Positions 1,664-58,399 of a DNA stretch of 64,000 nt are shown piece by piece (position 1 is the first letter of the stretch; each line of letters begins with the position of its first letter). A program made the position numbers and the translations under genes. Source of the stretch: an uncultured Chloroflexia bacterium. Its GTDB lineage: Bacteria > Chloroflexota > Anaerolineae > Anaerolineales > UBA4823. Location of the stretch: contig CAWHJB010000003.1 of NCBI GenBank assembly GCA_963829555.1, positions 53,957-117,956 of the forward strand. Reading direction: 5' to 3'. The notes under the pieces are model-generated. The model searched no databases and was not told the DNA's origin. It saw only the letters and a program-made list of their open reading frames with translations.

Positions 1664-1708
1664 GTGGTGTTCTGTTTGGGCGGCATTTTCCGTCAATCAG
1701 AACACCAC
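1664..1708. repeat. Degenerate, inverted copy of the GGTGTTCTGTTTGGGCGGC palindromic repeat family
   Basis: Outer arms gtggtgttctg / cagaacaccac are 11 bp; the inner part of one arm has decayed. Flank 1709-1737 is close to the reverse complement of the 5' flank of the copy at 45000. Confidence 0.6.
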
Positions 1709-1778
1709 ATCTACACATCTCGAACGTACCCAATCACGTTGATCGTGCCCCAGCGATTCAGGTGTGGCCGACTCAAGC

Positions 1779-2906
1779 TTAAAGTTCTTTGCGGAATACC
1801 CGGTGGTTTTTGTAGGCCACCCCGCCTAAATTGATCAAGTCGCTGCGCATATTGGTGGCCGTTTCAGCAACCTGGGTCAAGTCAGCGTCCCCAAAATTAT
1901 AGTCATGGATGGTGTTTTCCATTTCGGCATACAATAAGGCGTTCCCACCTCGGCCTTGAAATTCGGGCAAGATGCCGGCCCCATTCAGTGCGATCCATTT
2001 CGTGCGTCGCAGTTCGAGCATCAGATCGAAGATCCCAAACGGCAGCAGGCGGCCCTTATTGCGCTGGATCGCCGCTGAGACGTCCGGAAAACCGAATAAA
2101 AATCCGACCGCTTCATCTTCATGGGCAATCACTTTGATCAGTCGCGGGTCCGCTATGGTGAGAATATTGTCGACGACGAAATCGATCTCTCGCTCCGTCA
2201 AGGGGTAATACTCCCAGTTATTGACAAAGGCTTTGTTATAGGCCTCGCCAATCCGTTTTGCCCAGGTTAATAACTCCCGCTTGGTCTTGAATTTTAAGAC
2301 CCGCAAGGTGCCGCGTTCCTGAACCCGCCGGGAGATACTATGAATACGTTCCGGCAATTTGAATTTTTCTGCGTTTAAATGGCAGGAAACGAAATCGACT
2401 TCTTTCTCAAAGCCGATGTTTTCCAATAGTTTTGGATAGTACGGGTAGTTATAGTTCATCATGGTCATCATCTGGCGGTGCTCAAACCCTTCCACCAGCA
2501 GACCATAGCCATCCAACGGCCCAAAACCTTTTGGGCCAACGATCGTATCCAGACCACGCTCCCGCGTCCATTCGAATGCCCGTTCAAATAAGGCGTTGGC
2601 CACTTCCTGGTCGTCTTCGCATTCAAAAAAATAAAATTGAGCCTGTTTCGTTTGGTGGTATTCATTGAAGTGCCGGTTTTCGAGGGCGGCAATCCGGCCA
2701 ACATCACGGCCGTCTCGATGTGCGATGAAAAAATCTGCCTCGGAATGGTCATAAAAAGGATGTTTGTTCGGATTCATCTGGGCTTTAATGTCGACCAGGA
2801 TGGGTGGCACCCATTGGGGATGGCCCCGGTATAGACGGAATGGGATCTCGATGAAGCGTTTTACCTGGCTCTTTGCCCCGGTGTCAATTTTTGTTACTGT
2901 TAGCAT
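1779..2906 (-). CDS. GNAT-like N-acyltransferase family protein
   Basis: Track ORF 1779-3014. Likely start is ATG 2906 (MLTVTKIDTG) preceded by GGGAGG. Acetyl-CoA type motif QGRGGNALLY near the C-terminus. Paralogous by eye to 24650-25850. Confidence 0.6.
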   Translation of the reverse strand: MLTVTKIDTGAKSQVKRFIEIPFRLYRGHPQWVPPILVDIKAQMNPNKHPFYDHSEADFFIAHRDGRDVGRIAALENRHFNEYHQTKQAQFYFFECEDDQEVANALFERAFEWTRERGLDTIVGPKGFGPLDGYGLLVEGFEHRQMMTMMNYNYPYYPKLLENIGFEKEVDFVSCHLNAEKFKLPERIHSISRRVQERGTLRVLKFKTKRELLTWAKRIGEAYNKAFVNNWEYYPLTEREIDFVVDNILTIADPRLIKVIAHEDEAVGFLFGFPDVSAAIQRNKGRLLPFGIFDLMLELRRTKWIALNGAGILPEFQGRGGNALLYAEMENTIHDYNFGDADLTQVAETATNMRSDLINLGGVAYKNHRVFRKEL

Positions 2907-2973
2907 GGGTACCTCCCGGCCGAAACGTTGAATTATTGTATTTACCTTGCTAATGTCACAATCGAAGAAATCC

Positions 2974-3029
2974 CCAAAATTTCGATGGGTGTGGCGGGCA
3001 GCTGCCCGCCACACCCATCGAAATTTTGG
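2974..3029. repeat. Perfect 56-nt palindrome (28+28, centre CAGCTG)
   Basis: ccaaaatttcgatgggtgtggcgggcag|ctgcccgccacacccatcgaaattttgg. Flanked by the outer inverted pair aatgtcaca (2952-2960) / tgtgacatt (3041-3049). Lies in the leader of the GNAT-like gene. Confidence 0.85.
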
Positions 3030-3031
3030 TA

Positions 3032-3147
3032 TCCTTTTAATGTGACATTGGCAAACTACTCAGGCATAAGTAGTTATAGGTGTGCATGGGATACGCCCCC
3101 ACGCACACCTATTTCGCCATAGAATTCAGGCGTTGGCTGAGTAGTTA
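3032..3147 (-). repeat. Composite nested-inverted-repeat element, copy A (partner at 11715-11846)
   Basis: Terminal inverted arms aactactcag / ctgagtagtt enclose hairpin 3076-3112 (ataggtgtgc.tggg...ccca.gcacacctat). Hand alignment to copy B gives about 26/33 identities in the 5' block and about 26/29 in the 3' block. Confidence 0.7.
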
Positions 3148-3294: not shown

Positions 3295-3993
3295 TTACAG
3301 ATTCTGCCTGTTCGTCGGGTTGCCGGTAAGTTTTCCATCTCTCAAGTAAAGAATGCGATCGGCGTAATTCGCCGCTTCCTGGCTGTGGGTGACCAAAATC
3401 ATATTTTTGCCCGCCTGGCGGGTCAGCTTATCCAGCAGTGCCAGCACCTGTTTCCCAGTCTGTTCGTCCAGGTTGCCGGTGGGTTCATCAGCCAATACCA
3501 GTAAAGGATCATGCACCAGGGCGCGTGCGATGGACACCCGCTGTTGTTCGCCTCCGGACAAGCGGTCCGGAAAAGTGCCGGCCCGGTCCAATAAACCCAC
3601 CGCATCCAGCAGGGGCTCGGCCCGTTTTTGGGCCGCCTGGGGTGAGATGCCGCCCAGTTCCAGTGGTAAGGTTACATTTTCGATCACTGTCAGGGTGGCA
3701 ATCAGATTGAAAAACTGAAAGATAAACCCAATGTTGTGGCGACGAAAAAGGGTACGCTGGCGCTCGTCAAGGGCGGTTAAATTTTGACCATTCAGCCAGA
3801 TCTCACCGTGATCGACCCGATCGATTCCACTGATAATATTGAGGAGGGTGCTTTTCCCGCTTCCGCTCCTGCCGAGTATCGCCACAAACTCGCCGGGCTC
3901 GAAGTTCGCGCAGGCGTCCTGCAGGATTTCACGTTGGCGATCGCCTTCCTGGTAGCTTTTGGTGATATTTTCTAAACAGATAAATGGTTCCAT
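3295..3993 (-). CDS. ABC transporter ATP-binding protein (MacB/LolD type)
   Basis: Walker [10 protein letters not shown], signature LSGGEQQR, Walker [10 protein letters not shown]; 232 aa. Confidence 0.9.
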
Positions 3994-4050
3994 TGCCTTT
4001 ATTTTCGTCCGCGGTAGCGATCATCTCGTTCCAACGAGAGTTTCCCGCCA

Positions 4051-5458
4051 TTACTGCCCTTGACGATATGTCTCCAGGGCCCGTTCTCTGGCTGCCTTGT
4101 GGTCGACGATCGGAGCGGGATAGTCCTTGCCAATCCGGCAACCGACCTGGCGCTGTACTTCTTCCGGCATTTTCCAGGGTTCGTGAATAAACTCCACCGG
4201 TACATCGGCAAGCGCTGGCAGCCAGCGTTTGACATAGATGCCTTCCGGATCATACTTTTGACCCTGGGAGGTGGGATTAAAGATCCTGAAATAGGGAGCA
4301 GCATCGGTGCCCGTGCCAGCTGTCCACTGCCAGCCGCCATTGTTTGAGGCCGGATCACCATCGATCAGATTCTGCATGAACCAACGCTCACCCCACCGCC
4401 AGTCGATTAATAAGTCTTTGGTTAAGAATGAGGCAGTGATCATCCTGGCCCGGTTGTGCATCCAGCCAGTGGAAACGAGTTGGCGCATGGCGGCATCCAC
4501 AACGGGATAACCGGTCTCGCTGTTTTTCCAGGCCGCAAACTGAGCGCGGTCATTTTGCCAGGGGATAGTCTGCAGACGAAAGTTTTGGGTCCGCACTTCG
4601 GGAAAGTGGTGCAGGATATGGATGTAAAAATCCCGCCAGATCAATTCATTCAGCCAGGATTTCAGCTGCTTTACGCTCCCTGGCGTTATCAGCGGCCTTG
4701 ACAACCTGGCGGGCAGCCGCAAAAACCCGCCGGGGTGAGATCATTCCGAAACGCAAGTAAGGAGAAAGGCGGGAAGTGCCGTCTTCTCCCAGCAGATTGC
4801 GCCCCGCTGCATAGTCAAAGATGGGCGCGCCGGAGCCACGAGTAAACTGGTCCAGACGTCGGCTTGCTTCTGTTTCCCCGGCCTGGAACGGGACCGATTC
4901 CAGAAGGGCTGGCTGTTCGGGTATCGATAAACTGGCCAGTTCTCCGGGCGTGTTGAGATCCAAAACCGGATCTGAACTCGGTGCAGTCGGGGTGGGCAAA
5001 GCTTTCCAGGCGCGGCTGAACGGCGTGAAAACGATATATGGTTCACTATTCGATTTCAGGACACTGCCCGGCGGGAGAATCGCCGGGCTGCCAACCCACT
5101 CAACCGGCAGTTCCGCCTCGACCAGGCGATCCCGCTGGCTGGCAAACGGTGAACAGTCGGGTTCAGCATAAATCCGGTCAGCACCGCTGGCCTGGAACAA
5201 ATCCGCCAGGATTGCCCTCGGTTCGCCTCTTCGCACGATCAGCCGTCCGCCGCGCTTTAACAAGGCGGTATGTAAAGACCGCAGGCCGTTAAATAGAAAA
5301 GCCACCCGTTGCTGGGCAACATATGAAGACTTAAGCAAGCGGTCGTCTAAAATGAATACCGGGATGATCGCCCGATGGGTTTCCAGGGCGGCGTTCAAAG
5401 CCTGGTTATCATGCAGGCGCAAATCGCGCCGGATCCACCAGATGGCTGTCTCAGGCAC
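4051..5458 (-). pseudogene. phr: Deoxyribodipyrimidine photolyase, reading frame broken by a 1-nt shift (or assembly indel)
   Basis: N-terminal ORF 4646-5458 (MPETAIWWIRRDLRLHDNQAL...) and C-terminal ORF 4051-4722 (...[11 protein letters not shown]...[12 protein letters not shown]...GWMHNRARM...NNGGWQW) overlap in frames offset by 1. The junction is at about 4670-4700. Confidence 0.85.
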
Positions 5459-5476
5459 AGGTAAAAGAGCTCACTT

Positions 5477-6454
5477 TCAAATTGATAAGGTTAAGCTGGC
5501 CTCGTCCAGAATGGCGACTTCGGCATCCGTTAAACGCCAGCCTGATGCCCCTGCATTTTCAAGCGCCTGGCGTTCATTTTTAGCTCCCGGAATGGGGATT
5601 GTTCCTTTGCATATTGCCCAGTTGAGGGCCACCTGGGCAGGCGATTTGCCGTCGTGATCATGCCCAATATCCCGCAGAACCCGGAGCAGTGGCTGGATTT
5701 TCGTCAGATAGCTACGATTGTAATGGCGACCGCGCACCCCGGGGGGAGTGTTTTCGGGAGTATATTTTCCTGTTAGCACGCCTTGCGCCAGAGGGCTATA
5801 AGCGATTAAAGTGATCCCCAGTTCACGGCAGGCCTCAAGCAGGCCATTCAGTTCAACTTTCCGGTTTAATAAGTGATATTCAACCTGATTCGAGGCCAGG
5901 TGGATGTCATGCTTCATTAAGGTCAGATGCGCCTGGCGCATCTGTTGTTCGTTATAGTTTGATACGCCTACCGCCTTTGTTAGACCCAATTCGACCGCTT
6001 CGGCTAAAGCTTCAGCCCAAATTTCTACCGGAATGGGCGGTGATGGAAAATGGATTTGATATAGATCAACGTAGGAGAGTTGCAACCGCTTGAGGCTGCC
6101 TTTTAAAGCGCGGATCAGGGTACCTTTCCAGAGTCTCCATGGAAGCGGCATAAATTTTGTGGCGATGGTAAAATCCTGGCGGGTTTTGGTTTGCTCTGGC
6201 GCTGATAATCTTTCCTGTATGAAGGCGCCTAATAATCTTTCCGAGCGGCCAATCCCATAAACTTCGGCCGTATCGAAGAAGTTTATCCCACTGGCCAGAC
6301 TGGCCTCAAACGCACCACGAACGTCTTCTTGATGGTAATCCCGGTCAAAGCCCCAGACCATACGATCTCCCCAGGCCCAGGCTCCGGTGCCCAAATCTGG
6401 GAGGATAAGATCTGTTTTCCCCAGCCGATTGGTATGCTCAGATGAGATTTGCAT
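5477..6454 (-). CDS. Aldo/keto reductase
   Basis: 325 aa. N-terminal GTGAWAWGD, DTAEVYG and C-terminal IPIPGAKN patterns typical of the AKR family. Confidence 0.85.
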   Translation of the reverse strand: MQISSEHTNRLGKTDLILPDLGTGAWAWGDRMVWGFDRDYHQEDVRGAFEASLASGINFFDTAEVYGIGRSERLLGAFIQERLSAPEQTKTRQDFTIATKFMPLPWRLWKGTLIRALKGSLKRLQLSYVDLYQIHFPSPPIPVEIWAEALAEAVELGLTKAVGVSNYNEQQMRQAHLTLMKHDIHLASNQVEYHLLNRKVELNGLLEACRELGITLIAYSPLAQGVLTGKYTPENTPPGVRGRHYNRSYLTKIQPLLRVLRDIGHDHDGKSPAQVALNWAICKGTIPIPGAKNERQALENAGASGWRLTDAEVAILDEASLTLSI

Positions 6455-6476
6455 GTTGTCTCCGTTGGCTCCGTAG

Positions 6477-7415
6477 TCAGGGAATGGAACTACACAGTGA
6501 GTCGATGAGTTCAGCGCTGGTCTTTAGCTGGCGCATTTCATCTTCGTTCAAAGGCGGTTCAAGTGTGCTGAGCGATCCTTGCCCGCCAATCAGGTGAGGC
6601 AGGGAAATGGTCACATCGCGAACCCCGGCAATTTCATCGGTTGGGGTGCAGATCGTCAGGATGGCGCGTTGGTCGCGTAAAATCACCTCGACCAGTTTGG
6701 CAATGGCGCTGCCTACGCCATAATATGTCGAACCTTTGCCTTCAATGATGTGATAAGCGGCTTTGCGAACCTGATTGTCGATCTCGTCCCGGTCCTCGCC
6801 GCAAACATCAACTTTTTGAATCCGGCAGAATTCTTCCAGTGGGATCCCGCCAATTGTGACCAGCGACCAGGTCAGCACTTCCGAGTCGCCGTGTTCGCCT
6901 AACACATATGCATGAACGTGTTGAGAGTCTACCCCGAGTTTACGGCCTAAAAGGGCCCGAAAACGAGCGCTGTCCAGCGTTGTGCCTGTCCCAATCACGC
7001 GCCCGGAGGGCACACCAAATTTTCGGGCATACCGGGCCGCCAGGTGGGTCATGATATCCACGGGATTGGTCGCAACCAGCAGTACAGAGTTGGGAGCATA
7101 GGTCAGGATGTTTGGAATGATCTGTTGGAACACTTTTGCGTTGCGTTCAAGCAGCTCGAGCCGAGATTCACCCGGCCTCTGGCTGACACCGGCAGTGATC
7201 ACAACCACTCGGGCGCCAGTCAAAGAAACATAATCCCCTGCATGAACGTGGATTGGATTGGCGAACGGAACCGCATGGGAGATGTCATCCGCTTCAGCCT
7301 GGGCACGAGCCTGGTTAAGATCAACCAGGATCACCTCTCGGCCGATACCGCGCAAGACCATAGCATAGGCGGCCGTTGACCCAACCAGTCCGCTGCCAAT
7401 GATGCCAATCTTCAT
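6477..7415 (-). CDS. ldh: L-lactate dehydrogenase
   Basis: Start moved to ATG 7415 ([14 protein letters not shown]), which forms an ATGA overlap with the upstream stop. Motifs: [10 protein letters not shown] (Gln of LDH specificity), ATNPVD, GEHGDS. Confidence 0.85.
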
Positions 7416-8932
7416 GGGATTTTCCCTTCTTTTAGAATGAGCTGGGCTACCCTCAGGCCGCCCAATGCAACTGCTGCTGTCGATTGTCCTGGAAAGATAC
7501 TGTCGCCAACCATCCACAGATCCTTTTCCAGGCGAGGGCCGCTGGTTGTAAATAAACTGGTTTGCGGAAAGCCACCGACCCAACCACGCGATCTGCGTGT
7601 AAAACGTTGGAAGGTCACCGGTGTCCCGGGCAAGATCAGGCTGGCCTTATGGCGCAAACCGGGTATGGCTACTTCTGCAGCAGCCAATACACGCTGAGTA
7701 TAACTCGCTTTTAGGTTTTCGTAAGCAGCCCGTTCCTTTTCGAACAGATTCCACCACTGCGAAAGATCTGTGTGCGTGCTGATCGTGAGCGCTCTCTGTC
7801 CCTGAGGCGCACGCTCGCGATCCCAAGCGGGGCTGAGCGACAGGAAAATGGAATTACCTTCGCCGAGGGGTTCTCTTACGATCACCTGGTGATGCAGGGG
7901 AAAATGATTTTCCAGATCGCTCCCGTCCAAACCTATGTAGAGTGTAAACGCTCCCCAACCCGTTGTAGGGGGCTTGCTGTGAGATTCTATCGTCTTTGGG
8001 ATATCACCTGCCAACAGGCTGGCGATATCCCAGGCCGGTAAATTCGCGATCACCAGATCCGCCGGATAATTGCCGCCTCGTTTTGTTCGCACATCAAAGG
8101 TATGACCGGTTTTCCGAACGATCCGAACTACTTCCTGCCGGTAATTCACTTTCCCGCCATGCTGTTGGACGGCTTCAGCCAGTTGTTTGCTGATTGTTCC
8201 AATCCCACCCTGCATATGGACCACGCCGCGGCGGGCTAAATCCAGGGCAGAGGCGGCATAGAGGGCATTCGCCTGGCGGCTGGTGGTCTGAGCGGAGATC
8301 AGGAGTTGACCGTCAATATATTGCCTCAAGGTCTCTGGCATATTGGTTAAGTGGTGGCCGGTTGATCGAACGGCGTCGGCAACCATCCCCGGATGGAGGC
8401 GTTGGCGGGGCGACTCCGCCAGCCAGGCCAGCCCTGTCCCGATTAACTGCCCCCATTGCGCCGGTGACTGAGGTGGCCACGGCGGCAGTTTCAGTGCCAA
8501 ATCCCATAATGCATCGGCCGTTCGTTCCTGCCAGTGAAAAAAAGGCTCGCTTGCTTGCCCAAAGGCGGCTCGTCTGGCTTGCCATCGGGATTGGTCGCCG
8601 CGCAGTTCGATTCTGGTCCCGTCTGGCAAGTGGACGATCATGACCTGCTGCTCGGCATGGGCCCGCCAGGCAGAGATCCCGACCGCGGCTGCCACCAGGT
8701 CCATTGGTCCGCCTGGGTAAAATCCCCCTGCCAGGGTGGCACCGGCATCGAAGCGATAACCCTGGTGATAGAAGGTCCCGGCGCAGCCCCCCGGATAAAT
8801 ATGAGCTTCCAGCACGGTTACATCGAATCCGGCTTTGGCCAGGCGAGCTGCAGCGGTTAAGCCGCCAACGCCCGCGCCAATGACGACGACTTTCTGGGCG
8901 GATTCACACCCCACCTTGGGCGTGTTATTCAT
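7412..8932 (-). CDS. Phytoene-desaturase-family FAD oxidoreductase (CrtI/CrtD-like)
   Basis: FAD fold [29 protein letters not shown]...YPGGCAG. Likely start ATG 8932 (MNNTPK) in an ATGA overlap with the upstream gene. Confidence 0.7.
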
Positions 8933-9370
8933 GATTGTAACAATCGTTGGGTCTTCCAACCACGGAATGCAAACAGGATCGGCAAATTCCACCACATTAA
9001 TCGCCCGATCAATCCCCAGAACCAGTGGCGTTTGAGTGTGGCTGAAACCTGGTCAACAACCAGGGTCTCCTCTGCAGCCAGCGCTTGAAAACTGTGGCGA
9101 TGCTCCCAGTGGAGGAAAGGGCCTTCGATCTGCCGGTCTGTAAATCCAGTCTCCGAAACTGCCTCGATTTTGGCCAGCCAATTTACTGGAAAGGGCCCCA
9201 GCCACAAAGTGAAACGCATTTCGTCGTCTTCGGCCAGGATATCGGGCGTTTGGTGCAGGCGAACGATGATTGGAGGGGGAGTGATTGCAGCCATGCTGGA
9301 CGAGGGCGCGGTGAAATTCGACCACTTTTTCAAGCGGCGCTTTGACGCTAAAGCTGTGTCTATATCGCAT
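8929..9370 (-). pseudogene. SRPBCC-superfamily protein, frame broken near the N-terminus (or assembly indel)
   Basis: MRYRHSFSVKAPLEKVVEFH (frame of 9370) continues logically in the frame of ORF 8929-9333 (APSSSMAAITPPPIIVRL...GPFLHWEHRHSF). The junction is at about 9307-9313. Confidence 0.6.
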
Positions 9371-9380
9371 GGCGGGATAA

Positions 9381-10319
9381 TTACTGCGATCGGGGTTTCA
9401 GAACGGCTCGCAGGGATGAGACCGCATCCGGGTAATCGAAGGTAAAGCCCGCTTCTGTGAGACGGGTGGGCAACACTCGCTGCCCGTCGAGTAGTACAGT
9501 GGACATTTCACCGAATAAGAACTTCATCAGAAATGCAGGAACCGGGAACCAGGATGGACGGTTCATGACTTTGCCAATCGCTTTTTCGAATTCTTTATTG
9601 GTGACTGGATTCGGTGATGTAAGGTTATAAACGCCAACTGCAGCCTCATTTTCCAATAGAAAACGAATGCCTTTGACCACATCAAAAATATTGATGTAAG
9701 ATACCCACTGTTTTCCACTACCGATCGGACCACCCACAAAAAATTTGAACGGCAGGATCATTCGCGGTAAAGAGCCCTGTTGACCGTCCAGGATGACCCC
9801 TGTTCGGATCACAGCCCGCCTGACACCAAATTTTTCGACGGCTTCAGTCGAGGCTTCCCACTGAACGCAGACCTGGCTTAAGAAATCATCTTGATGGCCC
9901 GCTTCTTCCGTGATCACTTCGTCGCCGCGGGGTCCATAATAACCAACGGCAGAGCTTTGGATCAGAAGTTTTGGCTTTTTCTGGGCCTGCTGGACGGCTT
10001 CCACAATGGCATGCCCGGGTTGTAAGCGACTTTCAAGAATTGTTCGTTTTCGTTCCTTGGTCCAGCGGCTTGGAAATAAAGAATCGCCGGCAAGATTCTC
10101 GCCAGCCAGATTCACAATTGCGTCTGCTTCCTCGACCAAGGAGCCCCACCCGGCAGATGTATTACCATCCCAACCAACGACCCGGATCCCTTCACCAAAT
10201 CTGTCCCGATTTTTTTCGGGAGAACGGCTGAGGATGATGACTTCATGCCCTGATTTAGCCAGTTCGCGTGACAACAAGCTGCCCACCATTCCGCTTCCGC
10301 CTGAAATAATGATTCGCAT
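9381..10319 (-). CDS. TIGR01777-type SDR (epimerase family with DUF1731-like C-terminus)
   Basis: MRIIISGGSGMVGSLLSREL Rossmann motif; 312 aa; RBS AGGAGA upstream of ATG 10319. Confidence 0.8.
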   Translation of the reverse strand: MRIIISGGSGMVGSLLSRELAKSGHEVIILSRSPEKNRDRFGEGIRVVGWDGNTSAGWGSLVEEADAIVNLAGENLAGDSLFPSRWTKERKRTILESRLQPGHAIVEAVQQAQKKPKLLIQSSAVGYYGPRGDEVITEEAGHQDDFLSQVCVQWEASTEAVEKFGVRRAVIRTGVILDGQQGSLPRMILPFKFFVGGPIGSGKQWVSYINIFDVVKGIRFLLENEAAVGVYNLTSPNPVTNKEFEKAIGKVMNRPSWFPVPAFLMKFLFGEMSTVLLDGQRVLPTRLTEAGFTFDYPDAVSSLRAVLKPRSQ

Positions 10320-10388
10320 TTTATTCTCCTGTTTTGAACCACTAGCTTAGTGGTCTCCTCGCTAAGTTCTTTTGCTTTGAAAAGTGAT

Positions 10389-10437
10389 TGTAATGTTCAT
10401 TTTTGTGCGGCGAGGCCGCACAAAAATGAACATTACA
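10389..10437. repeat. 49-nt palindrome (23-bp perfect stem, 3-nt loop) in the operon leader; diverged member of the GGTGTTC...GGGCGGC family
   Basis: tgtaatgttcatttttgtgcggc gag gccgcacaaaaatgaacattaca. Nested inside the imperfect outer inverted repeat 10350-10365 / 10461-10476 (13 of 16 matches). Confidence 0.85.
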
Positions 10438-10585
10438 TTTGCTCTTTTTCCTAAAGATATTTAGCGAGAGAACCACGTAGATGCGTTCGGGATAATTCAA
10501 ATATTTCTTAAATTCAGAGTTGCTTATCCCGTATATTCTCTCTATACTAAGGTAACGTCGCTAAGAGATACATTTACTTACTAGA

Positions 10586-10614
10586 ATTATACAAAAACAA
10601 TGCGAATATGTCAA
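10586..10614 (-). promoter_or_regulatory. Consensus sigma-70 type promoter for the SDR-to-photolyase operon
   Basis: The minus strand reads TTGACA (10614-10609), a 17-nt spacer, then TATAAT (10591-10586). The predicted leader is about 260 nt. Confidence 0.6.
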
Positions 10615-10642
10615 GTTATTGTACAAGTAATGTTCATATTGC

Positions 10643-10671
10643 TTGACAGGTATTAAAACGTATGATAAACT
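10643..10671 (+). promoter_or_regulatory. Candidate promoter of the CarH/LitR-like regulator gene
   Basis: TTGACA (10643-10648), a 17-nt spacer, then TAAACT (10666-10671). Its -35 hexamer lies 28 bp from the -35 of the divergent promoter. Confidence 0.4.
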
Positions 10672-10700
10672 CTTGTAGCATAAAAATAGACGAGTGAAGA

Positions 10701-11672
10701 GTGAACATGAAAACATTACCTGATGTGCAAACTGGAAACGAAGAACCCCTGTACAATATTGGCGTTGTCGCTCGGATGACAGGCGTGTCCATGCCAACTT
10801 TACGGGCCTGGGAAAGGCGGTACGATTTCCCGAATTCGGAGCGAACTGCCGGCGGGCATCGTTTGTATTCAGAAAAGGATGTCTTGCGCCTGCGTTGGGT
10901 GAAAGCCCGGATTGATGAAGGTTTACAGACCTCCCAGGCGATTCAAGCTCTCCATCATCAGGAAGAGGTTGGACGCATGGCGCCAGTGGAACAACCTTAT
11001 AGCTGGCAGGATGGACGCCAATCGGAAGGGGGCACGCATCTGGGGTCGTACCAGCAGCGCCTGATGGAAACGCTGCTGCGCCGCGATGTCGACAGCGCCG
11101 ACCGTCTTCTGGGTGAAGCTTTACCATTATCCTCGCCTGAAGATTTAATTTTGGACGTTATCGGGCCAACTTTTACTCAAATCGGTGAGGCTTGGGAGAA
11201 TGGCCATATCAGTATCGCCACAGAGCATCTTTCGACCAATTACCTGCGCCAAAGATTGTTGATGTGGATGATGAGCGGTCCACCTCCACGAAATACCAAG
11301 CCGATTGTTTTGGCATGTGGTCCGAATGAATGGCATGAAGGCGGCTTGCTGGCTTTGGGTGCTTTGCTGCGACGCAGTCGTTGGCCGGTGGCTTACCTGG
11401 GTCAGTCCCTGCCACTGCAGGATCTGGCGTCATTTGTCCGGGATCTGAGACCCAACCTGGCAATTTTGGTGGCAATGACCGAAGTTTCCGCCAGTGAGCT
11501 GGTGGATTGGCCTCAATATTTACCCGAGGTGGCCCAGACGGGCAAGCCCGTTATCGGGTATGGGGGGCGGGTATTCAGCCTGCAGCCTGAATGGCGTTTG
11601 AGAATGCAGGGTGTATATTTAGGCGATACCCTGCGGGATGGTATGCAAACCATCGAGCGTTTGCTGACTTAA
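10701..11672 (+). CDS. MerR-family transcriptional regulator with cobalamin-binding domain (CarH/LitR-type photoreceptor candidate)
   Basis: HTH YNIGVVARMTGVSMPTLRAWERRY. W-x9-E-H (WENGHISIATEH) and E-x-H-x-x-G (EWHEGG) signatures. The track start is GTG 10701; an alternative start is ATG 10707. Confidence 0.85.
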   Translation: MNMKTLPDVQTGNEEPLYNIGVVARMTGVSMPTLRAWERRYDFPNSERTAGGHRLYSEKDVLRLRWVKARIDEGLQTSQAIQALHHQEEVGRMAPVEQPYSWQDGRQSEGGTHLGSYQQRLMETLLRRDVDSADRLLGEALPLSSPEDLILDVIGPTFTQIGEAWENGHISIATEHLSTNYLRQRLLMWMMSGPPPRNTKPIVLACGPNEWHEGGLLALGALLRRSRWPVAYLGQSLPLQDLASFVRDLRPNLAILVAMTEVSASELVDWPQYLPEVAQTGKPVIGYGGRVFSLQPEWRLRMQGVYLGDTLRDGMQTIERLLT

Positions 11673-11707: not shown

Positions 11708-11714
11708 TCCTTTG

Positions 11715-11846
11715 TAACAACTCAGCCACTGCTTGGAATATATGGCGGTACAGCTGTGCGTGAGGCATATGCCTCACGCACAGCTGTACCGCTATTATTT
11801 CGTTCTAATGTCGGAGTAGTTTGACGATGTCACATTAAAAAAAGGA
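11715..11846 (+). repeat. Composite nested-inverted-repeat element, copy B, containing a perfect 48-nt palindrome at 11745-11792
   Basis: gcggtacagctgtgcgtgaggcat|atgcctcacgcacagctgtaccgc (centre CATATG). Flanks taacaactcagccactgcttggaatatatggcg and ggagtagtttgacgatgtcacattaaaa match copy A. Confidence 0.75.
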
Positions 11847-11888
11847 CACCTAAATTTCGCTGAGTATTCAGTTCTTCAGGTTCAATAC

Positions 11889-12986: not shown

Positions 12987-13021
12987 GTCCAAAAATAAAA
13001 CACCTCACTGGTGTGAGGTGT
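12987..13021 (-). terminator. Rho-independent terminator after tRNA-His
   Basis: On the minus strand: acacctcac acca gtgaggtgt followed by TTTTATTTTT. Confidence 0.7.
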
Positions 13022-13071
13022 CCGGACCTGGATTATTCGGTTATTTATCCGGCCATCTATTGATTTATCAG

Positions 13072-50989: not shown

Positions 50990-51039
50990 AGCAAAGCCCT
51001 TTACGGGTCACGGTTTTCAGCAAGTTCCAAAAATGAAGA

Positions 51040-51097
51040 GCTTGGTGTTGGGAATGGGCGGCCTAAGCCGCCCATTCCCAACACCAAGCCTTTTTTT
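51040..51097. repeat. 50-nt hairpin (23-bp stem, loop CTAA) plus T-run; family member, possible bidirectional terminator
   Basis: gcttggtgttgggaatgggcggc ctaa gccgcccattcccaacaccaagc followed by ttttttt; preceded by ccaaaaatg. Confidence 0.8.
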
Positions 51098-51136
51098 GTG
51101 AAAGTCTTGCTTTACGGGTGCATGCAAATGTTGTAA

Positions 51137-51188
51137 AAAAGTTATGGGGTTGATTTTCGGGCGAATTCGCCCGAAAATCAACCCCATA
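51137..51188 (-). terminator. Perfect 46-nt palindrome (centre GAATTC) acting as likely terminator of the response-regulator gene
   Basis: tatggggttgattttcgggcgaa|ttcgcccgaaaatcaaccccata. On the minus strand it is followed by acTTTTTT. Confidence 0.55.
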
Positions 51189-51239
51189 GATCCAAAAAAA
51201 CCCGGGATTTCCCAAAAGTCCTTGTTTTACAGGCTTTGA

Positions 51240-51914: not shown

Positions 51915-52243
51915 AACTTATCTCCAGCCCGAATGATCCCAGAAATATGAGATCAGGATCCAGGTGAGAAAGCAAGCCAGCCATTGGCTGGTTTTTTATT
52001 TACACCTGGAACTTATTAACTGATTATAGCTTACCTGAAAAATGAGCCTCTTGGGCAGAAATTTTGAATTCTCCTGATGATTTTGGGATGATGTCCCGGG
52101 CAGGCAGGACATATGCTCATGACAGGCATCAGGCAATCGGTTAATCTTATCAAACGATTAAAGTTATTACATGACACATCCCGGTACAGCTTTGTTCGAA
52201 TTCTACCTGAAAAGCTGGGCATCTACTTTTGGAGGAATATCCC

Positions 52244-54404
52244 ATGGAAACGAAAACGAAAAACAGGAGGTGGATATTTATCGTCTTTTGCCTTCTCTTC
52301 TTGTTGCTGCTGCCCGCGGGATATACAGGCTATATGACCTATGTGACAGGTCGAATTCCATTTCTGCCAGGCACTCAGACAGTCTCTGACAATGGCACGA
52401 CCTTGTTTGTAGATATCTTAAGCCCATCGTTGGCCGAGAATTTTAGTGTGGGCCAGCCAATTCAGGTACAAGCCCAGGTTTGGGGCCTGGCACCTGTGGA
52501 TACCGTTCAACTCCTCGTGGATGGACAGATCGTGGCAGATCAAACGGAGGATGCAGTTGCCAAGCCTTTAAATGTGAGTTTGATTTGGAATGGCAGTTCA
52601 CCCGGAGCACATGCCCTCACTGTGAATGCGACTGATTTGCAAGGACAAACCCGACAGTCGCAAACAGTGATCGTCAATTTGAATACTCCTCCCTTGAGTG
52701 CGGCTGTGGCTGCAAGCGGCGATACGCTGGCATCGATCAGTCAGGCTAATGGCGTTTCGGTAAATGAGGTCGTGGCACTCAATCCTGGACTGGCCTCTCA
52801 AGCTCCCAATGACCCGGTTTATCCGGGCTACCAGGTGAATTTACCCTCACGCTTAACCCGCCCGACCCAGAGTAATGGGGCACTTGGCAATCAACCAACT
52901 GTTTCCGTCCAGTCACAAACCGGATTGAGTATGTTGATCCAGTGGGCGCTGAATTTTCATCAGCCGGTTGACAGAATTTATTGTTATCAAACCACAGATG
53001 CAGTCAACTGGCAGCGCAACCCTGTAAGTGCCTTTAATTTTCTGCCTGGTCAACAATGGCAGCAGCCCATTCTACTTTCTGCTCAGCGGTCAAATGTAAT
53101 CCTGGTCTTGGATTGCTGGGGTTGGAAAGCCGGCATTTTGAACTACCTTGGACAAGGCCAGACGATCCTTTCGATTGGTAGTGTCCCGCGTGAGATCACC
53201 CTGGAAGCCAGCGGTTTTCAGGCTGTGGGTGTGCCGTTGATTAACCCGCAGGCAAATATACTCCCTGCCCCGAAAGTGCCGCCGCCTTACGGCTTGCGCG
53301 AACCAAAAAGCGTTTCTGAATGTGTTAAATATTTTGGCAGTTCGCTGGCTTCACTCGCCTGTAATGAATGGATCAACGAGCCGGTACAGACCCATGATTT
53401 GCTGATCTGGGATTGGCAGCCCGGCATCTGTCTGCCGGGAGATAACTACTGCAACTGGATCAACGAAATCCGCGGGTACCAGGTATTTGCGGTTGACGAC
53501 AACGGAAAACCCATCGAGTTGCTGCAATCTGTCGATTTGGGGCAGCAATTGGCGGCCATCCCTGTTTCGTGGGGGCCGGTGTGTTACGGTGTGCGCGCTT
53601 ACAGCGGCCATCCCCTCGGCAACAACCCCCTCAGGTTTTCTGAGGATGGTCGTGCATTGTCCTTCCGATCCGGCGCAGCCGCAGACAGTGACGATTGATA
53701 TGGACGAATGGTATTCAGCGGAAGGCTGGACATTACTCGACACTGAGTGCCCGTATGCAGAGAAAGGTAAAAGTAAAGTCACTTATGTCACAAATACATC
53801 AAAAGATGGTCATCCGCCCCTCAAATTGTATCCAAAGGGAAACCAGGTCCTGGTTGGCGACCAATGGTGGCATGCAAGTAATGGTTGTGATGAACACCGC
53901 AATGCCAAAGCGTTAATTCATTTTCCGCTGGACCAGATTCCACCAAAAGCCGTTATCCAGCAGGCCAGGTTGCAATTTATCCAGGAGGGCAATATTCATT
54001 CGTATGATGGTAGTCCCGCATCCATGGATCGGCCCATATGCGCCACCCGCCTCTTCCCCAGCCAACAAACCTGGCAACCACCTTCCGGTAAACATTTCGT
54101 CAATTATGGCGATCCCCGCCCACCAGGAACTGACTATGGTTATTGGTCCGATCAGTTCACCAACGCTGTGCAAGGCGCGCCATACCAGTCGATATCGAGC
54201 ACCACAACTCAATACGATGTAACCGGCGATGTCTTGCAATGGTACCAGAATCCAGCCAGCAATTATGGCTTTTCCATTCAAGCCTGGACAGTGGACCTTG
54301 AATATACAGGTCTGATCCAACCAAACGCCCATAAATCTGGATACTCATTTTGCTGGTCGACCTTGAATAATATCCAACTCGTAGTCGAGTACTTTGCTCC
54401 CTAG
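52244..54404 (+). pseudogene. Signal-anchored Ig-like + LysM + novel C-terminal domain protein, frame broken (or assembly indel)
   Basis: Start ATG 52244 after GGAGG. LysM motif GDTLASISQANGVSVNEVVALNPGL. ORFs 52229-53698 and 53487-54404 overlap in different frames; the junction is at about 53630-53655. Confidence 0.6.
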
Positions 54405-54422
54405 AGTATAAGGATCAAACAC

Positions 54423-55379
54423 ATGAAATCGAGCCATAGTCTTTCTGACAATATGTACGTTTTTTCTGGCTGCCTGCGCGGGTGGATTTAACCTTCCTTC
54501 TTCTTCGAGTGGCGAGACACCGGTTACCTGGATCGATAAACCCTTGCCAGACAGCCAATATGTTCTCGAACCTATCGAACTACTGGTTCATGCCAATGCA
54601 CCCAAGGGTGTTGCTGCGGTGGCTTTCTCGGTAAATGGGCAGCTGGTTGAAGCGCTCCCAATCAGCGGTGACGCCAGACCATTTGTCACCCTTCCACATT
54701 CCTGGACCCCTTCTGAACCCGGAGAATATACCCTGTCTTTTGCGGCGCAAAATGCAGTTGGTGCCTGGGGGGCAAGCAGCGATGTAACGATCCAGGTGGT
54801 CTCGCGACTGGATAACCCACTTGAGGGGGTTAATTTCACAGTGGAGGATACCCACCGCAGGCTATGGCAACCCAGGCTATCCAAGCGACAGTTACATCTC
54901 TTCCTCCGACGCCAATCTACACTTCGACCGGCGTCCCACCAGCCACTGCTATCCCGGCGACAAATACATCTCATCCTCCTACACCCACGAATATCCCGAC
55001 CAGTGTCCCGCCAACCTCCACTTTCACGCCTGTTCCTCCATTGCCGACTACTCCGCCGCCTCCGCCGGATACAGAACGACCAGTGATCCTCGAATTGGAA
55101 TGGTCTCCGTTCTCTCCGCAAGAGGATTCCCCGGTGTCGTTTAGTGTTGTGGCGCGGGACAACGTTGGCGTCACCCGGATTGAGATTTACTTTGTACGCC
55201 AGGGCAGCGCGGCCAGCGGCCCGATATATACCTGTAATAATACCGATGTTTGCACCTATGATGCCGGCAATGGCTTCTCCTGGGGCACTTACAGCTATTA
55301 TGCTAAAGCCTATGATGCCGCCGGTAACCAGGTAAATACATTTACGCAGACTGTCGTGGTACAGCAGGTGGTGAAATAG
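54423..55379 (+). pseudogene. Lipoprotein with two Ig-like domains and a Pro/Thr linker, two frame breaks
   Basis: ATG 54423 (MKSS) reaches a stop after 22 codons. The lipobox sequence IVFLTICTFFLAAC is in the +1 frame. A second shift at about 54834-54865 returns to the frame of the ATG. Confidence 0.55.
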
Positions 55380-55381
55380 CC

Positions 55382-57190
55382 ATGACTGCTAGAACACTTG
55401 CTGGATTAGGTTGATATACTGCTCTTGCTAACCGCCCTGTTGGCTGCGTGCGGTAGCCAACCTGTTACCCAAAATGCAGGATTATCAACTACACAGAACC
55501 CCACTGCCACCCTGGCCATCGAGCCACAGAGCAGTAGTGGGAATGGGACCTCCGATCTTCGTACCAGTGGAATCCGGGTTACAAGGACTTGACAGTCCGG
55601 CCGCAGATCTGGTTTGGGCCGTTAGATCCGTGGTCGTGGGATCGATATTACCCTGGACAAGGGCCTTTTGAATTCTATGATCTTTTCCAGCCGGATGCTC
55701 CCTGGCCGTGGGCCTCGGAGGCGGTGCAAGTCGTCCGTCTGTATCCGGTCTGGATTGACAATTATGCCACTCCGCAACAATTACAAAACGTGATTGAGGA
55801 TATCCAGGCGCGTGGTATGGCGATCTCGTATGAAGCCGGTCCCTTGCAGGAAACTAGTCAGTGTAATGCCAGCACAATCGAGGGCTTTTGGGGCAAACCT
55901 GGGGCTGAAAACATTGCCCATAACATCAAAGCGGCAGGTGGCAGGCTCTATTCCATGGATCTGGAGCATGGCTTTGATGCTGCCACGTACTACGATGTGG
56001 CGTGCCGTAAATCGCCGCGTGAAATCGCCGAGGATGCTGCGATCACAATAAATGCCCTGCGGGCTATATTTCCGGATGTGTTGATTGGCAGCATTGAGAC
56101 TGCCGACCTAAATGTGGATGATGTGGCTGCCTGGATGGAAGCCTACCGGGAAGTAATGGGCGAAGAGCTGGATTATTTCCATCTGGACATCAATTTCCAA
56201 CGGGTGGATTGGGCAGAACGAGCCCGGGAAATTGAAGATTATGTGGAATCAGGCGGTGTCGAGTTTGGGATCATCTATTTCGGCAACCATGATGATGGCT
56301 CGGATATCGATTGGATCAATCATGCTAAATCGCGCTTTGTTGAATATGAGGTTTTGCAAGGAGGAACGCCCGATCATGTCGTTTTTCAATCCTGGCATAC
56401 TCACCCGCAAAACCTGATCCCAGAGACTGAACCAGACGCGTTCACCAATCTGATTTTGCGCTACTTGCGCCCACGGACAAACATCTCTGTTGAAATCTTG
56501 GGGAATGCTGCCAGCGGCAACTTGCAAACGGACTCAGGAGCGCCGGTGCCTGAGGCTGAGATCGAAATATTTGCGGAACCGCTGGATGGTGATGGTTTGG
56601 TGACGGAATATCACGTTAGCGGCACGGTCCCCGACGGTGCTGTTCGGGGCAATGTGGGCTTCAGAGTCAATACGGAGTGTGATTGTCGAGGAACGGCGGC
56701 TTTTGTACTGGAGCAAGTCTCTTACACTGAGAGTAACCTGCCAGGTGGCAAAGTGCCCAATGGCAGTTTTGGCAATGGGCTGAATGGCTGGGGGTTGTGG
56801 GGTTCTGGGAATCAGAACCTGGTATCCAGTGCCTATGGCAATGGAACTGCGCTGGCGGTTGATGCCAGCCTTGGTCAAAACGCCGGAGCAAACTCGGATG
56901 CTTTTGTCGTAACGCCCGGCGAGACGTTTACGGTTACATTTACCGCCAGAGTGAGTCCACTGACGCATGCAGCCGGATATTTCAGCCTGTTTTTTCTCAA
57001 TGGAGCAACCGAGGTAGCTCGTTTCACGCTCCCCATATCGGCAGGCAGAACCACAATTGCCACGGGGGCCACCAACCAAGACGGAACTTTTTCGATCAAC
57101 CTGGACCAACTGCCTGAAGGCAGTTACCAGTTTGGGGCCTGGTATTCCGGATCGCCAATATTATGGCCAGCGATTGAAATTTTCAAATAG
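55382..57190 (+). pseudogene. Lipoprotein with C-terminal galactose-binding/CBM-like domain, two frame breaks
   Basis: ATG 55382 gives MTARTLAGLG then a stop. Deleting one G at 55409-55410 would give MTARTLAGLVDILLLLTALLAACGSQP. A second shift at about 55538-55585 leads into ORF 55589-57190. CBM-like motif NGSFGNGLNGWGLWG. Confidence 0.5.
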
Positions 57191-57234
57191 TCATTAGGTT
57201 CGATGCCATACCATATCCAATAGGAGTAATTCTG

Positions 57235-58251
57235 ATGAAAATAAAAACACTGATCATCCTGATCCTGGGAACCCTCATGTTTGCTGCGTGTGGTACTCAG
57301 GCCCCAGCCAGCCAGGACCAGGTTTTGGTTTATGCCCAGCAAACGCTAGACGCGCTGAACGCCAGTGTGGGACAGGATCAACCGATTGCTACGGTTGCAC
57401 CCCAATCTAATAGCGTTCAACCGGTTGCCACGGCTGTACCACAATCTAACACGGATACAGTTTCAGCCGGTGATGCGAATTCTGCAGGCAGTGGGAATGC
57501 ATCAGCAGGATTTGCTGGAGCAGTCGGTCAATGGGAGTCTTTAGATACGGATTTGAGTTACCAGACCCTCTCATTTGTTTCAAATGCGGATGGCAGTTAT
57601 GCTTTTCAATATACCGATCAAGGTGCCTCAACCTGCGGCCTTGATCCCAATAATAACGCCTTAAATGCATTGACTTTTTCCGGAACTGGGCTGGCGACAA
57701 ACAATATTTTCCACGCGACTCAGGTTCAGGGCGTTTGTGAGGGTACAGGTAAAACAATTGTTGTCGATTTGCAGTATGCCTTCCAGGCGGATAGCAATAC
57801 CATTATGGATGGCTCCGGGATAGTCTGGAAACAGCGTAACAGCGCCACCGGTTCAAAGCAAAGCGAGCCGACCGGTGAAAGGATAAATTTGTTTGATGCC
57901 ATTGACGGAGCGATCAATTTTCCCGCCAACCAGGCATTTCACATCGAGCATGGTTGGAGCTACGATGCTGGCAATTCTGCCCAGAACGTTTTCGCTACAT
58001 CTGATTTTGCGCTGGTGCTCGATCACCAAGCTTTGCCTTTGGATACGGTTAAAGTCCTGCCAGATGATTCTGGGAATGCTGGTAGCATCAATTGGGTGTA
58101 CAACTTCCCCAATGGCCTGACCGGCACTCATTCGTTTTCAGGGATCTGGACAGCGCCATGCGCCGTAGCGCAATCAGCTGCTAATTGTAATGATCCCAAT
58201 GCAACTGTTGAATCGGAACCGTTAGAAGTAACCATCAATTTCTCGCCGTAA
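57235..58251 (+). CDS. Lipoprotein, function unknown
   Basis: MKIKTLIILILGTLMFAACG lipobox; 338 aa, intact. Confidence 0.6.
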   Translation: MKIKTLIILILGTLMFAACGTQAPASQDQVLVYAQQTLDALNASVGQDQPIATVAPQSNSVQPVATAVPQSNTDTVSAGDANSAGSGNASAGFAGAVGQWESLDTDLSYQTLSFVSNADGSYAFQYTDQGASTCGLDPNNNALNALTFSGTGLATNNIFHATQVQGVCEGTGKTIVVDLQYAFQADSNTIMDGSGIVWKQRNSATGSKQSEPTGERINLFDAIDGAINFPANQAFHIEHGWSYDAGNSAQNVFATSDFALVLDHQALPLDTVKVLPDDSGNAGSINWVYNFPNGLTGTHSFSGIWTAPCAVAQSAANCNDPNATVESEPLEVTINFSP

Positions 58252-58355
58252 TGTTTCTTGCCTACGAACACCCTGGATTGTTGATCAACTATGATTTCAC
58301 CCCTGGAAATTCAACAATTGTGAACTGATGCACTAGTTCTCCATCAGGATGCGTT

Positions 58356-58399
58356 AAAATGCTTCTGGGAAGTTAATTATTAACTTCCAGAAGCATTTT
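58356..58399. repeat. Near-perfect 43-nt palindrome (one extra G in the left arm), possible bidirectional terminator
   Basis: aaaatgcttctgggaagttaat|attaacttccagaagcatttt. Confidence 0.8.

Follow-up and report, generated by a model that had tools for sequence, protein, structure and literature searches.

Long-stem, U-tract-poor terminators have been described in actinobacteria, and IS200/IS605 elements are moved by Y1 HUH transposition without flanking direct repeats or terminal-repeat units. MITEs carry direct repeats of 7–9 bp that wane with time, form stable stem-loops and tend to cluster, and the core of QMITE2 contains GTAG (PMC10969869). REPs with GTAG are reported in Chloroflexi, chiefly downstream of genes (PMC3733652). 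Template switching turns imperfect inverted repeats into perfect ones (PMC5941160, PMC8794818). A full-text literature search found no description of a MITE or REP for the uncultured Anaerolineales (Chloroflexota) lineage studied here. Our analysis suggests that most of the long palindromes in the window (the whole 64-kb stretch of DNA that was analysed) are probably the cores of ~100-bp non-coding MITEs, which are spread in the intergenic DNA of this one narrow lineage.

Nine perfect stems of 14–28 bp are found in the window, eight of them at least 19 bp long, together with three imperfect hairpins. The null for stem length is given by 30 dinucleotide-preserving shuffles of the window, in which the longest stem is 12 bp and 0.03 stems of at least 12 bp occur per shuffle. 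An inverted repeat is present at every position listed by the first-pass annotation, which had described stems of 19–28 bp with at most one mismatch; the description is right for the eight long perfect stems but not for those at 3076 and 58356. The copy at 1664 is indeed decayed, as proposed there, with one arm identical to the 45000 arm at 21 of 21 positions and the other degraded. All hairpins lie in intergenic gaps, most of them downstream of genes and two between divergent starts, much as had been described. Three conspecific loci (L042, L043 and L129), drawn from two data sources, ENA and Logan, carry all seven hairpins that they cover, six of them identical and the one at 51040 differing at its apex only. 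Thus the palindromes are not assembly artefacts, a reading that these copies rule out. The apex change at 51040, the only one between strains, looked like direct evidence of a DNA-level process but is probably an assembly indel. The elements are as follows.

1633–1731, minus strand: putative MITE copy of family A, 99 bp; core 1664–1708 with one arm intact and one degraded; 8-bp direct repeat AATCACGT on either side, at 1625–1632 and 1732–1739.
2947–3054, no strand assigned: palindromic element; core 2974–3029 with perfect 28-bp arms, loop 0, centre CAG/CTG, –52.6 kcal/mol; outer imperfect inverted repeat TTGCTAATGTCACA / TGTGACATTGGCAA; 68 nt upstream of the start of the gene at 1779–2906 (minus) and downstream of the ABC ATPase gene at 3295–3993 (minus); a target-site duplication was looked for and none was found.
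3076–3112, minus strand: family-B hairpin with a 15-bp stem and a 7-nt loop; its one mismatch, A.C, reads as G.U on the minus (sense) strand; GTAG precedes the stem on its 5′ side by 2 nt.
10350–10476, no strand assigned: palindromic element; core 10387–10439, 23–25 bp, loop GAG (perfect 23-bp stem at 10389, 25 bp with one mismatch); outer arms with 73% complementarity over 62 nt; sited in the leader that follows a perfect TTGACA-17-TATAAT promoter (10614–10586, minus), with divergent genes on either side.
11716–11821, no strand assigned: family-B palindromic element; core 11742–11795, centre CAT/ATG (perfect 24-bp stem at 11745, 27 bp with one G.T); flanked by convergent carH-like and metallophosphoesterase genes; adjoined by a truncated 2974-type left arm reaching ~11868.
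12998–13023, minus strand: short canonical terminator that follows tRNA-His, ACACCTCA...TGAGGTGT with a T-run; conserved across related species.
13198–13248, minus strand: perfect palindrome with 25-bp arms, loop 1; the hisS stop lies on one side and the tRNA-His promoter on the other.
14693–14761, no strand assigned: family-A copy; left terminus GGGGATGCATTCGAGAAGCGTAGAC and perfect 19-bp core 14720–14761, loop ATTA; right half diverged; differs from 45000 by one G-C to C-G flip; no direct-repeat duplication detectable.
27579–27612, plus strand: intrinsic-terminator-like hairpin, perfect 14-bp stem, 6-nt loop, then TTATCGTTTTATG; between convergent genes, outside the repeat families and absent from the first-pass list.
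44979–45077, plus strand: putative family-A MITE, 99 bp; core 45000–45047, 23 bp, loop AC; perfect 9-bp direct repeat TCAGCGTGG at 44970–44978 and 45078–45086; located between two divergent gene starts, with a conserved promoter ~75 nt downstream.
51009–51109, no strand assigned: putative MITE, 101 bp; core 51040–51089, 23 bp, apex CTAA; 10-bp direct repeat CTTTACGGGT at 50999–51008 and 51110–51119; T-runs on both sides; inserted at the edge of the adjoining 51143 element.
51116–51213, no strand assigned: family-C element, ~98 bp; core 51143–51188, 23 bp, centre GAA/TTC; left terminus GGGTGCATGCAAATGTTGTAAAAAAGT fits the A/D terminal consensus; core followed by ACTTTTTTAC on the minus (sense) strand.
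58354–58399, plus strand: AT-rich hairpin, 21 bp with one bulged G, downstream of the gene at 57235–58251 (plus); ends in ...GCATTTT CATTTAT; unrelated to the repeat families.

What had been taken for a single family of terminator-like hairpins resolves into several dispersed repeat families of ~100 bp with target-site duplications and shared termini. Family A is represented in the window at 1664, 14720 and 45000, family B at 3076 and 11742, and family C at 51143; families D and E are found in relatives, and the arms of 51040 are related to family A. Repeat families are also present in related-species loci (L044, L045, L127 and L128). The homology extends beyond the stems, since the alignment of 1664 with 45000 covers 111 nt at 77% (E = 2e-20) and that of 3076 with 11742 covers 142 nt at 70%. 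The 3076 hairpin and the 2974 element form a composite homologous to 11713–11868. Families A, C and D have a common terminus of ~24 nt, GGGTGCAYT..AA..TGTAGAT; the core that comes after it varies and is perfectly palindromic. The arm similarity claimed for six copies holds in part: beyond base composition it is strong among 1664, 14720 and 45000 (z = 7–9), moderate between these and the 51040 and 10389 arms (z = 3.7–6.1 in five of six pairs; z = 2.8 for 10389 against 14720) and moderate for 3076/11745 (z = 4), but at 51143 it does not reach significance (z at most 2.1).

Direct repeats of 8–11 nt bound the units at 45000 (99 bp), 1664 (99 bp) and 51040 (101 bp), as well as two units in relatives, L044:2318–2420 (103 bp) and L128:13813–13911 (99 bp). 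A 10-nt direct repeat with one mismatch flanks a 99-bp unit at L045:14304, and an 8-nt repeat is found at L044:8475. Direct repeats of at least 9 nt accompany 4 of 28 hairpins versus 1.45% of random sites; when one mismatch is allowed, the 8 matches among 22 do not differ significantly from the 20% null. No target-site duplication is seen at 2974, 3076, 10387, 11742, 13198 and 14720, which are half of the window palindromes.

The elements also come and go between orthologous gaps. The 13198 palindrome is missing from the corresponding gap in two related species (L044 and L045) and has therefore been inserted or deleted. The divergent gap at 45000 holds family A in the window, family D at another place in L128 and neither in L126 and L127, and the carH/metallophosphoesterase gap holds family B in the window and family A in L045. 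One family-E copy has lost its core. Eleven hairpins are found in the 64-kb window versus 16 in ~770 kb from relatives (HisRS identity of 61–75%, and of 86% for one further short contig), so long palindromes of this kind are frequent only in one narrow Anaerolineales clade. Dispersal, direct repeats, shared termini, orthologous presence and absence, sites between divergent promoters, adjoining or nested insertions and clade restriction are features of MITEs. A transposase with staggered cuts ~9 bp apart would move the ~100-bp units in trans. A search of the sampled loci turned up neither a transposase nor a full-length insertion sequence whose termini match. Family-A copies differ more in their termini than in the core, the opposite of what MITEs usually show; this counts against the MITE reading, as does the loose complementarity between the left and right termini of an element.

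The position of most hairpins downstream of genes would also be expected of unusually long, often bidirectional intrinsic terminators or 3′ mRNA stabilisers, kept perfect by RNA selection and alike through convergence or local duplication. T-rich tails are present at 2974, 11742 (plus), 51040 and 10387 (both strands), 51143 (minus), 27579 and 58354, the sole internal mismatch of 3076 is G.U on the sense strand, and from L127 to L128 the hairpin that separates the HHH_3 and NDK genes has diverged far less than the sequence flanking it. However, 45000 and 10387 are located between divergent starts, where a terminator has no role, and no T-run follows 13198, 14720, 45000, 1664 or 3076 in the sense direction. 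The 5′ arms are rich in G and T, the 3′ arms in A and C, a polarity opposite to that of A-tract/stem/U-tract terminators. The canonical terminator after tRNA-His indicates that the same lineage uses short ordinary ones. Independent terminators would not be expected to have target-site duplications, shared termini or 100–140-nt homology between distant loci. We consider this explanation unlikely for the families as a whole. Known Rho-independent terminators, including the long-stem U-tract-poor actinobacterial types, are likewise GC-rich hairpins at gene 3′ ends, some with T-runs, but the stems here are two to four times longer, have the reversed arm polarity (T-rich 5′, A-rich 3′), and occur between divergent promoters with transposon hallmarks. 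The hairpins at 27579 and 58354 do look like ordinary intrinsic terminators. The other hairpins with T-runs are probably compatible with ordinary termination as well. Transcripts that read through an inserted MITE core would form a very stable hairpin there, and the cores followed by T-runs (2974, 11742, 51040, 51143 and 10387) probably terminate transcription or protect 3′ ends.

The covariation between copies reported by the first-pass annotation is real. In the family-A alignment both sides have changed in 7 of 19 pairs, by transversion-type exchanges (UA<->AU, CG<->GC and GC<->UA) with almost no G.U intermediates; wobble-mediated GC<->AU changes, absent from the covarying pairs, would be expected under RNA selection. 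Between two 95%-identical family-D copies, an A-T pair has flipped to T-A. The statement that G-T pairs are lacking applies to the perfect cores; elsewhere, here and in relatives, the few mismatches are mostly of transition type (G.T or A.C). Both innermost pairs are complementary in 8 of 15 even-centred clade elements versus 1/16 expected, and through-apex palindromy is seen in 2 of 14 in far relatives. Complementarity at the apex cannot be selected by hairpin folding or stability, which argues against the terminator reading and for a DNA-level origin of the symmetry. That origin, proposed earlier, is partly supported over RNA selection alone, with the reservation that recent insertion can account for much of the perfect-arm signal where duplications are intact. 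Foldback synthesis or a cruciform-reading protein, named as specific mechanisms, are not demonstrated. A symmetric protein (nucleoid protein, resolvase or restriction-modification-linked factor) that binds the palindromes as double-stranded sites or cruciforms could impose two-fold symmetry, and the symmetry through the centre does resemble dimer-binding sites, with a GGTGT/ACACC motif recurrent in many arms. But core sequences, centre hexamers and arm lengths (16–28 bp) vary widely between families, neither conserved spacing nor a candidate protein was identified, and transposon hallmarks account for the distribution by themselves, which makes such a protein extremely improbable. For the MITE cores, exact symmetry, apex included, would be kept by copying between the arms, most likely by replication template switching that corrects quasipalindromes to perfect palindromes.

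The elements resemble REP/REPINs in being short intergenic palindromes with GTAG by the stem, mostly downstream of genes and in lineage-specific families. At 3076, in the D copies and in each of the three family-A copies, GTAG precedes the stem on its 5′ side by 1–5 nt. If the elements were GTAG-tagged REPs or REPINs, a RAYT transposase (IS200/IS605-type tyrosine, HUH) would mobilise them in single-stranded hairpin form, and selection by this enzyme for an intact DNA hairpin would favour Watson–Crick pairs. Y1 HUH transposition does not yield 8–11 bp flanking direct repeats or ~100-bp units with terminal repeats, which REPs lack, and the stems of REPs tend to be shorter, with imperfect pairing. 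With approximate queries, a weak test, tblastn detects no RAYT-like or IS608-like gene in ~1 Mb (the window and the loci); a single weak match is a dienelactone hydrolase. RAYT-driven mobility is therefore given little credence. The published template-switch model (Ripley; Lavi et al. 2018, PMC5941160; Monttinen and Loytynoja 2022, PMC8794818) explains perfect arms, symmetry unrelated to loop constraints, one-event changes on both arms and matched indels. It is described mainly for 5–15 bp arms or rRNA hairpins, whereas here it would act on the 19–28-bp arms of mobile elements. The closest likeness is to bacterial MITEs (Coxiella QMITE2, Neisseria Correia elements, pneumococcal RUP/SPRITE and enterobacterial ERIC), which are also ~100 bp, non-coding, intergenic and multi-copy, with terminal repeats, 7–11 bp flanking direct repeats that fade with age, insertion beside or into each other, and very stable transcript stem-loops that can act as terminators; QMITE2 shares the GTAG palindrome in its core (PMC10969869). 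The elements here differ in their host, an uncultured Anaerolineales lineage, in having no known cognate insertion sequence, in left and right termini that are only loosely complementary, in a core better conserved than the termini, and in a centre that is a perfect palindrome with 16–28-bp arms, often loop-free. The kind of element is thus already known, and its central hairpin is unusually perfect.

All of the long palindromes listed by the first-pass annotation were recovered in the window by an inverted-repeat scan and by a separate hairpin finder. They are a real feature far above chance, since stems did not exceed 12 bp in any of 30 dinucleotide-preserving shuffles. Every hairpin lies in an intergenic gap. 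Loci of the same species from two data sources (L042, L043 and L129; 99.3–99.9% identity) contain the same hairpins. Hairpins are named here by their window start; 10387/10389, 11742/11745 and 58354/58356 are the same hairpins.

2974: perfect stem, 28 bp
10389: perfect stem, 23 bp
11745: perfect stem, 24 bp
13198: perfect stem, 25 bp
14720: perfect stem, 19 bp
45000: perfect stem, 23 bp
51040: perfect stem, 23 bp
51143: perfect stem, 23 bp
27579: perfect stem, 14 bp, absent from the original list
3076: imperfect, 15-bp stem with one mismatch
58356: imperfect, AT-rich 21-bp stem with a bulge

The stems had been described as carrying at most one mismatch. Eight are indeed perfect at 19–28 bp, but 3076, 58356 and 1664 are imperfect. 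1664 was rightly called a decayed copy, as one arm is degraded and the other is identical to an arm of 45000. At 954–1022, within an ORF without Pfam hit, an imperfect long hairpin is observed, which may be one more decayed element; its outer stem (15 bp, 93%) encloses an inner GGCCTGCAGTAGGCC hairpin, with a folding energy of −39.8 kcal/mol.

An all-against-all comparison with 60-nt flanks reveals that the similarity between hairpins reaches well past the stems. For 1664 and 45000 the alignment covers 111 nt, and 14720 belongs to the same family (family A), whose three window copies are spaced 13–43 kb. 3076 and 11742 (family B) align over 142 nt, and the 3076 and 2974 pair as a whole is homologous to 11742 plus a second, truncated palindrome. 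Direct repeats flanking the units were first seen with the copies printed side by side and were then confirmed by systematic search. Related species were sampled via HisRS and a 772-aa neighbour gene (loci L044/L127, L045/L126 and L128; 58–88% protein identity, coding DNA about 76%). Most of the set is several related families of palindromic MITEs of about 100 bp in an uncultured Anaerolineales lineage, an identity missed in the first-pass annotation, and the remainder is a few ordinary terminators. A MITE is a non-coding unit of 50–500 bp with a duplication of constant length, terminal inverted repeats shared between dispersed copies, and a cognate autonomous insertion sequence. The copies with direct repeats are as follows.

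44979–45077 (hairpin 45000): direct repeat TCAGCGTGG, unit of 99 bp
1633–1731 (hairpin 1664): direct repeat AATCACGT, unit of 99 bp
51009–51109 (hairpin 51040): direct repeat CTTTACGGGT, unit of 101 bp
L044:2318–2420 (hairpin L044:2351): direct repeat TGATCGATAGG, unit of 103 bp
L128:13813–13911 (hairpin L128:13835): direct repeat CTCATCACT, unit of 99 bp
L045:14304: 10-nt direct repeat with one mismatch, unit of 99 bp
L044:8475: 8-nt direct repeat, imperfect core

The repeats are 8–11 nt long, compatible with 9 bp, and those of at least 9 nt flank 4 of 28 hairpins vs 1.45% of random-site trials. No target-site duplication was detected at 2974, 3076, 10387, 11742, 13198 and 14720, and a relaxed search allowing one mismatch gave no significant duplications for the remaining palindromes. 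Unit length, which hardly varies, is a regularity independent of the direct repeats: 99, 99, 101, 103 and 99 bp between direct repeats, with two more copies at 99 and 86 bp. No ORF fits within a unit. The consensus GGGTGCAYT..AA..TGTAGAT, with the core directly after, is common to both termini of D and to the left termini of A and C (hairpin 51143); the two ends of A, E and 51040 are only loosely complementary. The cores are better kept between copies than the termini. The motif GGTGT/ACACC is repeated in many cores that are otherwise unrelated (window, L044, L045, L127 and L128).

REP/REPIN elements, which are moved by a RAYT transposase, insert by a single-strand Y1/HUH mechanism without target-site duplication, and the RAYT gene is typically flanked by repeats. 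The perfect 8–11 nt flanking direct repeats contradict this mechanism. In 1664, 14720, 45000, 3076 and the D copies a GTAG precedes the stem by 1–5 nt on its 5′ side, and such GTAG-type REP repeats are reported in Chloroflexi (PMC3733652); 2974, 13198, 51040 and 10387 have no such GTAG. A tblastn search of about 1 Mb with approximate RAYT and IS608 TnpA queries gave no credible match. An ORF between two hairpins of locus L067, considered as a RAYT/IS200 candidate, is a dienelactone hydrolase.

The distribution of the MITE families is that of mobile DNA. The window families recur in the related species at non-orthologous sites, where families D and E are additional. The 13198 palindrome is missing from the orthologous hisS/tRNA-His gap in L044 and L045, in which the tRNA promoter is conserved. 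The divergent gap holding 45000 is occupied in L128 by another family, inserted at another point, and is empty in L126 and L127. In the carH/metallophosphoesterase gap the window has family B and L045 has family A. The insertion point of 51040 is at the extreme margin of the 51143 element. It is only in this narrow clade that long palindromes are common, with 11 in the 64-kb window vs 16 in a comparison set of about 770 kb (relatives at 61–75% HisRS identity and one short contig at 86%). Pfam listings of about 230 kb of clade DNA contain no transposase, and BLAST with two elements found no match in plasmids. A scan for the motif GGTGTTCTGTTTNGGCGGC in a genome collection without the source genome gave 41 single-strand chance matches in unrelated phyla.

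Could the hairpins simply be intrinsic terminators or 3′-end protection? T-runs in the sense direction follow 2974, 11742, 51040, 51143 and 10387, and the U-run is loosely of terminator type at 2974, 11742(+), 51040 and 51143(−). However, 13198, 14720, 45000, 1664 and 3076 lack a T-run, and 45000 and 10387 lie between divergent starts, not at 3′ ends. The arm polarity is also opposite to that of canonical terminators: a G+T-rich 5′ arm is seen in 25 of the 28 hairpins of the clade (0.54–0.94) and in 5 of 16 from far relatives. Thus some insertions may plausibly cause termination or 3′-end protection as a side effect, which does not explain the set. The hairpins at 27579, 58354 and 12998–13023 are terminator-like and carry the U-run. 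The last of these, on the minus strand 3′ of tRNA-His, is a canonical short terminator (ACACCTCA..TGAGGTGT plus T-run) conserved in three species (window, L044 and L045), so the lineage has ordinary terminators alongside the long palindromes. In the window only two tRNAs were identified by Rfam, whether at gathering or at E-value thresholds; a mir-138 precursor hit on both strands at 51036–51093 (hairpin 51040) reaches 32.7 bits vs a gathering threshold of 50 and reflects no more than a general hairpin similarity. Other candidates, namely retron msd, integron attC, protelomerase sites and CRISPR repeats, were rejected for having no associated gene, the wrong copy pattern and too diverse sequences. 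The co-varying perfect palindromes are thus mobile DNA, and represent no new class of RNA or type of terminator.

The exact symmetry of the arms had been attributed to a DNA-level process or to a protein reading cruciforms. Sites of a symmetric DNA-binding protein are unlikely, because the cores and their centres are too diverse for one such protein. A DNA-level cause is partly supported; through-apex symmetry, transversion-type covariation and a paired change between close copies bear on it. For the apex, stems were defined solely by pairs at least 5 positions off centre. Of 15 even-centred clade elements, 8 are then complementary at both innermost pairs vs 1/16 expected (about 1e-6), and several others are one substitution short of through-apex palindromy; the counts are 2 of 14 in far relatives and 1 of 7 among odd-centred elements. 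As the innermost pairs cannot form in a hairpin, folding cannot select them, which indicates a symmetric generation at the DNA level. The covariation between homologous cores is of transversion type, with base-pair flips dominant. In the family-A core alignment both sides changed in 7 of 19 pairs, the changes being UA<->AU (4), CG<->GC (2) and GC<->UA (3), with no GC<->AU and with G.U confined to three cells. Matched indels are found between family-E copies (GGGG/CCCC vs GGGGG/CCCCC). Between two D copies of about 95% identity, one pair has flipped from A-T to T-A and one position has changed in a single arm, so the paired rate is comparable to the single one, a ratio that independent double hits would not produce.

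Copies whose duplications are intact may simply be recent insertions. In 14720, however, the core is still perfect although the right half and the duplication are gone, and the outer arms of 10387, 11742 and 2974 are 55–75% complementary beside 100% cores. To be noted, an E-family copy at L128:20056–20120 has no palindromic core (deletion between GGGG repeats), and a D-type copy at L044:8475–8560 keeps its 8-bp duplication with an imperfect core; perfect cores are thus not universal. Template switching during replication is known to turn imperfect inverted repeats into perfect ones (PMC5941160, PMC8794818), and correction of imperfect arms by this process would be the best-fitting published model for the arm symmetry. 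A symmetric 2-nt apex difference of 51040 between strains, CTAA vs TA and the sole difference in 281 nt, was considered as a direct template-switch event and is probably an assembly error, the ENA contig being rich in homopolymer indels. In this contig (ERZ25039549:contig_22829; L042/L129) many 1-nt homopolymer indels are seen within genes, including a split arginase and a truncated 772-aa protein. They are typical of a noisy long-read assembly, so its indel differences to the window should not be taken as biological. Family E also shows an apparent inversion of the loop, GA vs TC; this was dismissed, since the copies are oppositely oriented and flank homology favours a reverse-complement alignment.

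Tentatively, and with the odds rather against it, one could imagine a MITE superfamily whose conserved and functionally essential part is the perfect loop-less central palindrome and not the termini, re-made or continually re-symmetrised by hairpin-templated (foldback or template-switch) synthesis at transposition or replication. Paired transversions and matched indels would then arise as single events, and the lineage would offer a natural setting in which quasipalindrome correction is exceptionally active and perhaps linked to the rule of a G+T-rich 5′ arm. Maintenance of hairpins by template switching is an idea already published, and clear long-arm bacterial examples are still few. With their through-apex symmetry and transversion covariation, the elements are well suited as a natural test of such maintenance over evolutionary time.

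The window genes are ordinary chromosomal ones (hisS, mgsA, a carH-like regulator, ABC ATPases and a LuxR-type response regulator), and the nearest named homologues of its HisRS come from Anaerolineales MAGs. Housekeeping genes (hisS, mgsA, a carH light regulon) have the elements in their promoters, leaders and 3′ ends, so that transcription units in the lineage are probably reshaped by them. At 4000–11672 a carH-like B12-dependent photoreceptor regulator (10701–11672) is divergent from an operon encoding a ThyD/epimerase-like protein, amine oxidase, Ldh, aldo-keto reductase and photolyase; the region is probably a light-controlled regulon. A perfect TTGACA-17-TATAAT promoter is found at 10614–10586(−), and its leader holds the 10387 palindrome. 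The LysM/Big_7-type surface-protein genes at 51992–58327 are 90.8% identical to the conspecific ENA contig with flanks at 99.3–99.7%, and form a hypervariable or recombined region.

The mobile-DNA origin of co-varying palindromes is relevant to the annotation of Chloroflexota MAGs and to any use of covariation as evidence for structured RNA. In known bacterial MITEs the direct repeats fade with time, copies cluster, and a GTAG palindrome is found in the QMITE2 core (PMC10969869). The elements of the window and its clade resemble the bacterial MITEs reviewed there in their defining features, namely duplications, dispersal, empty sites and clustering.
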